Shown: positions 11,776 to 17,598, counted from the stretch's first letter. The stretch is 64,000 nucleotides of DNA from an uncultured Gammaproteobacteria bacterium (GCA_964354025.1 CAYGXQ010000001.1:5963-69962); one strand, 5' to 3'. Numbers and translations are program-made. Notes: a model not told the origin generated them from the sequence alone.

Positions 11776-11847
11776 GTTCCCGTAGCTCAACGGATAGAGC
11801 GCGGCCCTGCGGAGGCTGAAATACCAGTTCGATTCTGGTCGGGAACG
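11776..11847 (+). tRNA. tRNA-Arg (anticodon reads GCG)
   Basis: 72-nt cloverleaf. Acceptor GUUCCCG/CGGGAAC, T-loop UUCGAUU, anticodon loop CUGCGGA. Confidence 0.7.
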
Positions 11848-11853
11848 CAAAAA

Positions 11854-15990: not shown

Positions 15991-16281
15991 ATGGGAAGTG
16001 AGAATATTACGAATTTTCAATGGGACAAGGGAAATATCGGGAAAAACCTTAAACATAAAGTGATGGATGAAGAGACAGAACAGGTATTTTTTGATAAGAA
16101 TAAAGTAATTTCAGAAGATATCGCTCACTCGCAAAAAGAAAAAAGATATATCATTATCGGTAAAACGAAAGAAGGAAGGTTACTTTATACAGTATATACA
16201 TTTAGAGGAAACAAGATAAGAGTCGTTTCCTCAAGAGATATTAATAAAAAGGAGGTTCATTTTTATGAAAAAGCCGCTTAA
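15991..16281 (+). CDS. brnT: BrnT-family ribonuclease toxin
   Basis: N-terminal FQWDKGNIGKNLKHKV matches the BrnT signature (FxWDxxKxxxNxxKHGV). It overlaps the downstream antitoxin gene. Confidence 0.65.
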   Translation: MGSENITNFQWDKGNIGKNLKHKVMDEETEQVFFDKNKVISEDIAHSQKEKRYIIIGKTKEGRLLYTVYTFRGNKIRVVSSRDINKKEVHFYEKAA

Positions 16282-16531
16282 ATTGCCAAAATTTAAGAAT
16301 GAGGAGGAAGAAAGAAAATATTGGTGGAATCTGGACCTTTCCGGATATTTTGAACCGTCTGATTTCAAAAAAGGCGTGACATTTCCGAATCTTAAGCCAA
16401 CTACCACTCCCATTTCTATCCGTATTCCGAAGTACCTTTTAAATCGGGTCAAAGAAAAAGCAAATGAACTGGCGATGCCTTATCAGAGCCTGATTAAGCA
16501 GTATATTCAAAAAGGAGTGATGGCAAGATAA
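16265..16531 (+). CDS. brnA: BrnA-family antitoxin
   Basis: 88 aa with a C-terminal RHH-like segment (ISIRIPKYLLNRVKEKANE). It overlaps the brnT stop. Confidence 0.6.
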   Translation: MKKPLKLPKFKNEEEERKYWWNLDLSGYFEPSDFKKGVTFPNLKPTTTPISIRIPKYLLNRVKEKANELAMPYQSLIKQYIQKGVMAR

Positions 16532-17030: not shown

Positions 17031-17088
17031 TTAAATCGGGATTTAAACACTCCAGCAAAGTTTAATCTTCGAAGAAGATTATTACTTT

Positions 17089-17277
17089 GCGCCTGTAGCT
17101 TAACTGGACCTGCCCGCAAATGCCTCGCATAGCGATGTCAGGCGGGTAGAGCATCCCGATTTGCTCCCGTAGCTTAATGGATAGAGTAGTGGTTTCCGGA
17201 ACCGCTGATGCCAGTCCGATTCTGGCCGGGAGCGCAACATCGGGGCGGTTGGAGGTTCGAGTCCTCTCAGGCGCGCA
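17089..17277 (+). other. Split tRNA-like locus. A 5' tRNA half (17089-17158) and a matching 3' tRNA half (17236-17277) flank the intact tRNA-Arg(CCG).
   Basis: The 5' half has acceptor GCGCCUG and a D-arm carrying a ~38-nt insert. The 3' half has T-arm GGAGGUUCGAGUCCUCU and CAGGCGC+G, which pairs perfectly with the upstream 5' acceptor. UCCCG (17154-17158) can pair with CGGGG (17241-17245) as an anticodon stem. Confidence 0.35.
17163..17234 (+). tRNA. tRNA-Arg (anticodon CCG), nested inside the split tRNA-like locus
   Basis: 72-nt cloverleaf. Acceptor GCUCCCG/CGGGAGC, anticodon loop UUCCGGA. The T-loop is the atypical UCCGAUU. Confidence 0.6.
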
Positions 17278-17373
17278 GAAGTGAATGATATAAAAATAAT
17301 ATTCTTTAATCAAAAAGCAGAAAAATTGGGAAAAGAGCTGCTTAATAAGTTATAATACAGTTTAATACATACT

Positions 17374-17459
17374 GGAGAGGTGTGATAATTGGTAGTCGGC
17401 GCGCTTGGAAAGCGCGTGTCTCGGAAACGAGATTACGGGTTCGAGCCCCGTCCTCTCCG
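17374..17459 (+). tRNA. tRNA-Ser (anticodon GGA)
   Basis: 86 nt, long variable arm (UCUCG-GAAA-CGAGA), anticodon loop UUGGAAA, T-loop GUUCGAGCC. Confidence 0.85.
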
Positions 17460-17598
17460 CAAGAAAAAGGTACCGTAAGAAATGGACTTCTATTTCGGCT
17501 TAAATTCCTTATGTGTCAAGCTAATACAAACCTGGTGTGGATATAATGGTGTGGATATAATAATTGATATCGGTAGCTGTTAGCTGTACCATATAAAT

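Follow-up and report, generated by a model that had tools for sequence, protein, structure and literature searches.

The stretch of DNA analysed here (the window) comprises 64,000 nucleotides of a genome deposited as an uncultured Gammaproteobacteria bacterium (GCA_964354025.1 CAYGXQ010000001.1:5963-69962). On its + strand, the two halves of a tRNA-Arg(CCG) gene, occupying 17089-17275 (187 nt), enclose a second, complete tRNA-Arg(CCG) gene at 17163-17234. In what follows, the outer gene is called the host and the inner one the cargo. The host is interrupted by two inserts, of 38 nt and 92 nt. The first is a hairpin in the D-loop and the second is a cassette, in which the inner tRNA is bounded by two arms that take the place of the host anticodon arm. 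The locus is composed of the following parts.

17089..17108, + strand: host (outer) tRNA-Arg(CCG), part 1, equal to bases 1-20 of the intact orthologue in the related loci L156/L158; acceptor 5' strand GCGCCTG (17089-17095), then U8-A9 (TA), D-stem GCTT and the start of the D-loop, AACTGGA, up to A20 (17108)
17109..17146, + strand: cargo-less 38-nt GC-rich hairpin CCTGCCCGC...CAGGCGGG in the host D-loop; the orthologues are without this insert
17147..17153, + strand: host part 2, with TA (end of the D-loop), D-stem 3' strand GAGC and A26; bases 21-27 of the orthologue
17154..17162, + strand: left arm of the cassette, TCCCGATTT (UCCCGAU + UU), in place of the 5' side of the host anticodon arm (CGAGATT... 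in the orthologue)
17163..17234, + strand: inner (cargo) tRNA-Arg(CCG), 72 nt, discriminator G at 17234; called by ARAGORN and by Rfam RF00005
17235..17245, + strand: right arm of the cassette, CAACATCGGGG (CAAC + AUCGGGG), in place of the 3' side of the host anticodon arm (...GGATCTCG in the orthologue)
17246..17275, + strand: host part 3, with variable loop CGGTT, T-arm GGAGG-TTCGAGT-CCTCT, acceptor strand CAGGCGC and discriminator G; the last 30 bases of the orthologue

Outer halves around a complete 72-nt tRNA had already been proposed in an initial annotation made from the sequence alone; they are present as described, with 3' coordinates that alone were off by 1-2 nt. The sequence of 17040-17480 is the same in two independent assemblies (ERR3804373 and ERR3804374), which excludes an assembly artefact. 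After in silico removal of both inserts, the outer sequence is called by ARAGORN as a cloverleaf. In the native sequence, the outer tRNA is called neither by ARAGORN, in its intron and low-threshold modes, nor by Rfam at E<=10. ARAGORN in intron mode, a check recommended in the initial annotation, reports the inner tRNA alone, and the Rfam calls at this cut-off are the inner tRNA and a tRNA-Ser, plus a weak antisense match to HPnc0260 that was put down to the tRNA-like outer 3' half. A covariance-model call of the inner tRNA alone had been taken in the initial annotation to speak against a nested gene; it is uninformative, because inserts of 38 and 92 nt cannot be bridged. The minimum free energy (MFE) fold of native 17089-17275 corresponds to the nested design (-81 kcal/mol, z = -2.6), with the 7-bp outer acceptor stem, the D-loop hairpin, a 7-bp helix between the cassette arms (UCCCGAU/AUCGGGG, 17154-17160 with 17239-17245), the inner cloverleaf and the outer T-arm.

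The resident gene and its intact orthologues

The comparison with orthologous loci that the initial annotation had recommended was made through the NUDIX gene next to the locus. Orthologues of this gene are found in bacteria of the Microgenomates/Gottesmanbacteria type, belonging to the Candidate Phyla Radiation (CPR), and their loci were retrieved (loci are referred to by L numbers). The NUDIX proteins of the relatives are 86%, 82% and 72% identical, and synteny is conserved for tRNA-Arg(GCG), tRNA-Ser(CGA), NUDIX, tRNA-Arg(CCG) and tRNA-Ser(GGA). At the site of the window locus, between NUDIX and tRNA-Ser(GGA), L156/L157, L158 and L159 have one ordinary, uninterrupted tRNA-Arg(CCG) of 74 nt, with the sequence GCGCCTGTAGCTTAACTGGATAGAGCA-CGAGATTCCGGATCTCG-CGGTTGGAGGTTCGAGTCCTCTCAGGCGCG. 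All 57 retained outer bases (27 + 30) match the intact gene of L156/L157 and L158, and the gene of L159 equals that of L156/L158 at 70 of the 74 positions. This orthology to a syntenic intact gene excludes a chance origin of the outer halves, which are the remnant of a genuine resident tRNA-Arg(CCG) gene that has been broken by insertions. The flanks align to those of L156 at 52 of 59 positions upstream and 91 of 98 downstream (85-93% identity on the downstream side), and the tRNA-Ser at 86 of 86. L156 thus offers an empty site for both insertions within closely similar flanks and, therefore, both insertions are recent.

The two insertions differ in what they leave of the host. Taking out the 38-nt insert exactly results in a canonical D-loop, AACUGGAUA, as in the orthologues. 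At the second site, the 17-nt anticodon arm of the host, CGAGATTCCGGATCTCG (CGAGA-TTCCGGA-TCTCG), has been replaced by TCCCGATTT, the inner tRNA and CAACATCGGGG. Deletion of the inner tRNA leaves a 10-nt outer loop, AUUUCAACAU, and no CCG is left in the outer RNA. As the outer anticodon loop is gone, no splicing could regenerate a decoder from this RNA; after removal of the inserts, the outer gene is without an intact anticodon stem-loop. The intron-like, tRNA-shaped insertion proposed in the initial annotation therefore stands in part: a resident gene has been interrupted that is uninterrupted in relatives, but removal of the insert cannot restore the outer tRNA.

The inner tRNA-Arg(CCG) scores 56.6 bits against RF00005 (threshold 29; E = 1e-11), is called as Arg(CCG) by ARAGORN and is the sole Arg(CCG) gene within the window. 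It is presumed to be a functional gene. Its identity to the host is 69%, and it is 78-81% identical to a class of 72-nt Arg tRNAs that includes the Arg(GCG) of the window itself, as well as the Arg(CCG) by which this syntenic site is occupied in L160/L161, which are more distant. The split from L156 is too recent for a local copy to have diverged to 69% identity, and the inner tRNA did not originate in this way. Downstream of the outer 5' half, no promoter-like site precedes the inner tRNA. The 10-mer ATCCCGATTT (17153-17162, its first A being host A26) matches a hairpin repeat, ATCCCGAT..ATCGGGAT, in L158. Together with the right arm it matches the hairpin repeat AATCCCGAT-N3-ATCGGGATT, which follows NUDIX in the window and its relatives and recurs after the tRNA in L158. 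From this match of the arms it follows that the inner tRNA sits in the loop of a hairpin.

Besides, the tRNAs of these genomes have some features of their own. The T-loop of the inner tRNA, UCCGAUU (17214-17220), already pointed out in the initial annotation, carries C55 for the near-universal U55. The T-loop GTCCGAWTC is also found in several CPR host tRNAs (L054, L070, L102 and L129), and C55 may be a lineage feature. For CGY decoding, the window (11776-11848, 17163-17234) and L158-L161 use a tRNA-Arg(GCG) with G34, not the usual bacterial ACG/ICG. The pairs of Arg and Ser tRNAs are syntenic across the relatives.

A hairpin family with and without tRNA cargo

A first scan looked for D-arms of the Arg type with an insert in the D-loop and a T-loop too far away for an ordinary tRNA. 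It detected tRNAs nested in tRNAs in Buchanan-, Doudna-, Woyke- and Roizmanbacteria genomes, as well as in other metagenome-assembled genomes (MAGs). At four of these loci, the insert is bounded by CCTGCCCG...CAGGCGGG, which are the termini of the 38-nt insert in the window. A second, host-independent pattern, i.e., the termini CCTGCCCG/CAGGCGGG with a T-loop in between, gave at least 120 metagenome matches, compared to a rough estimate of a few by chance. This set is ascertained by fixed termini and a canonical cargo T-loop, which under-samples variant termini, cargo with inserts and other arm families. The figures for cargo elements, hosts and arms given below apply among the metagenome matches listed, and the taxonomy of the contigs was derived from a handful of named genomes. 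A complete tRNA lies inside 116 of 124 elements, and 28 anticodons are covered. Elements without cargo measure 29-44 nt, come from other CPR contigs and are found in tRNA loops and at intergenic positions that resemble terminators.

The initial annotation had not recognised the D-loop insert of the window as an element of a separate repeat family. The insert has termini identical to those of the family, aligns with 12 other short elements (among them that of L082, with 33 of 36 positions matching and two 1-nt indels), is an imperfect palindrome with C.A at pair 7, and is cleanly inserted in a tRNA loop. Judged by these sequence features, it belongs to a hairpin family that is widespread in Patescibacteria (CPR) DNA; there is one copy of this family in the window and there are many across metagenomes. 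The cassette shares the architecture of the cargo-bearing elements, with a cargo in the loop of a hairpin, a host with the same anticodon (both Arg(CCG)) and the anticodon arm as the site. It has neither the CCTGCCCG/CAGGCGGG termini nor a seamless insertion, since its arms are UCCCGAU/AUCGGGG and the host arm has been replaced instead of split. A nested architecture with other arms is also present in L006 and L019.

The hosts follow rules that can be read once the elements have been excised exactly in silico, which gave 59 non-redundant host/cargo pairs. The anticodon of the host equals that of the cargo in 51 of these 59 pairs, compared to a mean of 3.4 and a maximum of 13 in 10,000 permutations. 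Most of the mismatches look like mis-parses of multiply interrupted hosts, and one (L032, host UCU and cargo UCG) seems real. Peeling off one or two more perfect GC hairpins revealed 17 further hosts, all with the anticodon of their cargo. Of the insertions, 26 lie in the D-loop, 24 in the anticodon loop (between 33/34 and 37/38) and nine in the T-loop. In 34 of the 38 pairs whose two 24-nt flanks can both be recognised as homologues of the cargo, the flanks meet at the same tRNA coordinate, from which it follows that insertion is seamless and makes no target duplication. Identity between host and cargo has a median of 77% (range 58-99%). Across unrelated genomes, arms and cargo are often closer to each other than the hosts are; in L047/L069, for example, the cargos are 86% identical and the hosts about 65%. 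These comparisons suggest that the cassette is the unit that travels. A comparison of host-host with cargo-cargo identities showed no more than a weak trend.

The arms form a helix of ~17 bp that is flush with both junctions and in which U.G (pair 3) and C.A (pair 7) are conserved. Their covariation score is 0.221, compared to 0.116 +/- 0.010 for shuffled pairings (reached by 0 of 500) and at most 0.092 for slid ones. An alternative register, 4 nt away (CCUGCC:GGCAGG, CGGG being left as a tail), was rejected, as the flush register alone runs into the covarying helix and slides of 1-3 nt score far lower. A hammerhead-like CUGANGA in a second type of arm (CCCGCCCGACTCGCCTGACGAG) was likewise discarded, having no stem III and no GAAA segment. 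An encoded CCA after the cargo tRNAs, the signature of retro-insertion, is not enriched compared to stand-alone tRNAs.

Once nested, the genes can be amplified. In L049 (2360-2980, + strand), a unit of arm and 5' half occurs ~5 times with a 70-nt period, and a unit of 3' half and arm twice; in L063 (3990-4190, + strand), 3' half and arm are duplicated with a 69-nt period. Host and cargo are about 99% identical at both loci and the repeat units 99-100%. Fragments alone remain in L028, L019 and L007. The arrays indicate that nested genes undergo slippage or unequal crossing-over, or else that nesting has multiple levels. A nested gene holds direct repeats, namely the 5' halves of host and cargo and likewise their 3' halves. 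Slippage between these repeats can be seen at the above loci and explains half-fragments near CPR tRNA genes. Some host/cargo pairs with high identity may hence arise in situ.

Comparison of the whole structure with phage genomes by BLAST gave no match, and two scans of viral contigs gave nothing, or false positives in GC-rich coding sequence. A number of related observations were made in passing. A 33-nt family member on the - strand of L120 (3274-3306) appears to be part of a gyrB-like open reading frame, close to its 5' end and in frame with it. A distinct, perfect palindrome, CTGCCTGCCGGCAGGCAG, is found in the T-arm of host tRNAs at L004 (- strand, 2258-2278), L037, L046 and L128, and mini-hairpins of the types TCCGCC-N-GGCGGA and CAGCC-N-GGCTG occur inside D- and anticodon loops. 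Given these several types of hairpin, several hairpin families target the same dead hosts. Outside CPR, a tRNA-Arg 5' fragment lies ~100 nt upstream of a complete gene in L013, L018 and L031 (Clostridia), L008 and L025 (Proteobacteria MAGs) and L026 (Phycisphaerales), the last of which has three tandem copies of the T-arm and acceptor 3' end. Such fragments were probably left behind by integrative elements, without any relation to the CPR cassettes. The pattern of the first scan also picked up tRNAs of archaeal MAGs (L009, L014, L016 and L017, including Aenigmatarchaeota) that combine a ~40-nt D-loop insert with a long anticodon-loop insert and are of use for comparison.

Proposed compensated disruption and its alternatives

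The explanation put forward here, with a probability of about 0.7, is that the DNA of the resident tRNA-Arg(CCG) gene was broken up by the insertion of two small palindromes, and that the inner tRNA with the same anticodon has taken over its function. The D-loop would have received a 38-nt hairpin of the CCTGCCCG...CAGGCGGG family, resembling the repetitive extragenic palindromes (REP) and miniature inverted-repeat transposable elements (MITE). The cassette would be a short hairpin that carries a complete tRNA-Arg(CCG) of foreign type in its apical loop and was swapped in for the host anticodon arm, and it could be tolerated because the same isoacceptor came with it. The D-loop hairpin would be tolerated because the host was already dead, or may have come in together with the cassette when the conserved tRNA ends recombined. 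With no promoter-like site between the halves, transcription would start upstream of the outer 5' half, giving one precursor from the promoter of the host gene. In this precursor, host halves and cassette arms are predicted to pair around the inner tRNA, as in the MFE fold. RNase P would then cleave at 17162/17163. The end after 17234 would be matured by RNase Z or an exonuclease, with subsequent addition of CCA. The outer pieces would be discarded as by-products, and the outer RNA is probably inactive beyond its missing anticodon.

The locus is taken as one case of a design that is general among CPR bacteria, in which a tRNA cassette borne on a hairpin has entered a loop of a host tRNA gene with the same anticodon. 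For the family as a whole, compensation is the best reading of the same-anticodon rule. An insertion would kill its host, such that those insertions alone survive that bring the same isoacceptor, and a dead host would tolerate more hairpins. Many hosts are indeed truncated or internally deleted, e.g., L054, L105, L116 and L128. There are 16 distinct short elements without cargo, eight of which lie within 130 nt of a cargo element and eight in non-tRNA DNA. None of the 16, counted by motif since single-hairpin removal over all loci is too noisy for counting interrupted stand-alone tRNAs, interrupts a tRNA without cargo, and the same loci hold 221 stand-alone tRNAs. Hairpins without cargo were thus found in tRNA genes only beside a back-up, which argues for compensated disruption and not for splicing. 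Moreover, the variable pairs of the arms carry no RNA-strand signature: G.U (56) and A.C (50) are equally frequent, as expected for a DNA palindrome and not for an RNA structure. Standard tools find tRNAs for all 20 amino acids in 85 of 95 complete Patescibacteria genomes (PMC13011429), and with such near-complete sets, interrupted hosts are not generally sole copies.

Several points weigh against this explanation. The assignment of the window cassette to the same mobile family is based on its architecture and not on its sequence. When long, autonomous elements with the termini of the family were sought, in a search not aimed at transposases, the repeat array of L049 alone was returned. Slippage as in L049/L063 can make host-like halves from cargo in situ and, therefore, the same-anticodon rule need not be due to selection alone. 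About 60% of the hosts are perfect cloverleaves with intact anticodons after exact removal of the inserts, and stem pairs average 21.1 in hosts compared to 21.4 in cargos. Intact hosts would be expected if they were still used after splicing; young insertions can account for them as well. In L076/L126, a close pair of orthologous filled sites, the host halves are as conserved as the cargo, although one pair is too few to decide. Of eight short elements in hosts, seven point in the same direction as the cargo, which hints at a strand-specific constraint, possibly at the RNA level. Lastly, the course of inner-tRNA processing and the fate of the outer halves, as proposed above, are predictions from sequence.

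Part of this evidence can be read in another way, with a small chance of being correct: the outer halves may be kept as a useful clamp of leader and trailer that supplies a promoter and guides folding or processing of the inner tRNA, like the processing stems of rRNA. The inner tRNA indeed has no promoter-like site of its own, leader and trailer pair through the 7-bp acceptor stem and the 7-bp arm helix of the nested fold, and compensatory changes maintain arm helices. Moreover, the 57 retained outer bases are unchanged, compared to a difference of 7-15% in the flanks. However, to find all 57 nt unchanged is only mildly improbable if the event was recent (P roughly 0.01-0.13), relatives carry the same isoacceptor without such a scaffold, and many family members, e.g., L028, L105 and L116, have lost one of the host halves. 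A clamp would in any case be compatible with compensated disruption and not opposed to it.

It is unlikely that the inserts are introns at the RNA level, removed by a bacterial endonuclease and a ligase, or by RNase P/Z and an RNA ligase, with two tRNAs produced from one transcript. What makes this option attractive is that the inserts of the family lie in three loops alone and that their exact excision gives canonical tRNAs with correct 7-nt anticodon loops. Hosts that often still are perfect cloverleaves, the orientation of short elements along the gene (7 of 8) and several inserts per gene, like in archaeal multi-intron tRNAs (L009-L017), would fit in as well. In the window, however, the host anticodon arm has been replaced and CCG is gone, so that splicing yields no decoder. 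There is no bulge-helix-bulge (BHB) either. A BHB tRNA intron, with two 3-nt bulges and a 4-bp helix, was considered and rejected, as the arm helix spans the element from its first to its last nucleotide, flush with both junctions, and has a single conserved irregularity, the C.A at pair 7. Harmless insertions would further predict unmatched anticodons, and hairpins without cargo in stand-alone tRNAs, neither of which is seen. In addition, there is no bias of G.U over A.C, many hosts are degenerate, and no ribozyme matches. In agreement with the initial annotation, the inserts (38 + 92 nt) are too short for a group I intron, and RF00028 gave no match at E<=10. A bolder variant, in which the hairpins of the seamless members are introns removed by a bacterial, non-ribozyme form of tRNA splicing, retains a small probability.

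A local duplication scar, for which slippage or unequal crossing-over would have copied part of the resident gene, is very unlikely. It had been among the suggestions of the initial annotation, which had noted the nearly identical outer and inner 5' regions, GTAGCTTAA(C)TGGATAGAG, and L049/L063 show that units of half-tRNA and arm can be amplified in tandem. The shared 5' motif is present in the window, but it is the conserved D-arm of Arg tRNAs generally. Inner and outer tRNA differ in their acceptor, anticodon and T-stems, and at 69% identity there was no time to diverge, given that a close relative keeps the empty site. An assembly chimera, or the permuted gene that had also been considered initially, or a split one, has nothing but the odd look of the locus in its favour and is hardly conceivable, as two independent assemblies are identical, the halves are collinear from 5' to 3' on one strand (17089-17275) and the architecture recurs in more than 100 independent contigs.

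Neighbourhood, significance and known systems

The genes around the locus encode AAA_14/DUF4143, BrnT/BrnA, NUDIX and Cyt-b5 proteins. No integrase was found within ~5 kb upstream or 2.6 kb downstream, and the 3' end of the tRNA is not repeated as an att direct repeat at the locus. Directly upstream of NUDIX lies a BrnT/BrnA (CopG) toxin-antitoxin pair (15991-16531, + strand). As the orthologous loci L156 and L158 lack the pair, this neighbourhood seems to have received one more insertion recently. Further away, the window encodes a long transfer-messenger RNA (tmRNA; 1557-1965, + strand; 409 nt, 122.8 bits in Rfam) with a tag of 30 residues, ANKSADEAEAILAFRANQSYQFAFAPSLSA. Given the hairpin inserts in the tRNAs here, this gene might carry an insertion too.

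To our knowledge, disrupted tRNA genes (intron-containing, split or permuted) are treated as archaeal or eukaryotic, self-splicing group I and II introns being the sole bacterial exceptions. No description of a tRNA nested in a bacterial tRNA with the same anticodon was found in the literature, coverage of which was incomplete, such that absence is no proof. The locus and its more than 100 relatives add an architecture from bacteria, in which a loop of one tRNA gene contains, within a conserved hairpin, a whole tRNA with the same anticodon. It would show how, in a minimal genome, an RNA gene that is essential and present in one copy can outlast the strike of a mobile element, as the insertion brings the spare part. 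It also offers an explanation for half-tRNA fragments around CPR tRNA genes and for odd flanks in the output of tRNA finders, and a natural test bed for the processing of highly structured precursors by RNase P/Z. If any of the hosts were spliced, a search for a new bacterial tRNA-splicing activity would be opened.

It is tentatively proposed, at somewhat less than even odds, that CPR bacteria harbour tiny non-coding mobile cassettes, consisting of a hairpin and one tRNA gene, that home into the loops of tRNAs with the same anticodon and replace the resident, with tRNA alleles being continually turned over by horizontal transfer. The hosts that they disrupt would remain as sites at which more hairpin repeats can land. 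Targeting might proceed by tRNA structure or by homology to the cargo, through transposition of a single-stranded DNA hairpin or recombination during natural transformation. On this proposal, tRNA alleles are predicted to be replaced horizontally, and there is a substantial chance that it makes the locus a new class.

Different known systems share some of these features. Disrupted tRNAs of archaea, i.e., those with non-canonical BHB introns or multiple introns, the split tRNAs of Nanoarchaeum and the products of intron transposition in Thermoproteales, likewise have short inserts in D-, anticodon and T-loops, several per gene. In both cases, inserts that are related to each other are found in various tRNAs and at various sites, the insert is closed at the junction by a GC-rich helix, and the tRNA is restored when the insert is removed exactly. 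In contrast, the genes described here are bacterial (the window encodes a tmRNA and the genomes that the scan detected are CPR) and lack the BHB. Moreover, the insert can hold a whole tRNA with the same anticodon, and the evidence points to an inactivated host and not to splicing, the host in the window being without an anticodon.

Group I introns are known from the anticodon loops of bacterial tRNAs, including those of Patescibacteria, and are overlooked by standard tRNA finders (PMC13011429). The phylum, the interruption of tRNA genes and the failure of standard finders are thus the same as here. Yet these introns are self-splicing ribozymes of at least 200 nt in the anticodon loop alone, whereas the inserts in the window measure 38 and 92 nt and the family also enters D- and T-loops.

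The hairpins themselves resemble REP/MITE palindromes, such as the REP-BIME of E. coli, the palindromic elements of Rickettsia and the Correia elements. Both are GC-rich imperfect palindromes of 30-40 nt with a conserved mismatch, are present in multiple copies across genomes, and are found at intergenic, terminator-like sites as well as inside genes (compare the gyrB-like reading frame in L120). The known palindromes differ from the present elements, which enter tRNA loops cleanly and without target-site duplication and have a version with a tRNA as cargo in the apical loop. A partner such as a REP-associated tyrosine transposase (RAYT) or another transposase was not identified for the hairpin family, in searches that were not aimed at transposases.

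Integrative elements that target tRNA genes, such as phages and islands, also compensate for the disruption they cause, the inserted DNA keeping the tRNA function. These elements measure kilobases and carry an integrase gene, and their att repeats duplicate no more of the tRNA than its 3' part. Here, by contrast, a non-coding cassette of ~100 nt brings a whole, diverged tRNA and leaves both halves of the host. Finally, the intervening sequences of rRNA, cut out by RNase III without religation, and the tRNAs freed from rRNA or mitochondrial transcripts by RNase P/Z offer a parallel for release from a long helix by standard RNases, with remnants that are not rejoined. In the present case, the RNA to be released is flanked not by an rRNA operon but by a disrupted tRNA with the same anticodon.

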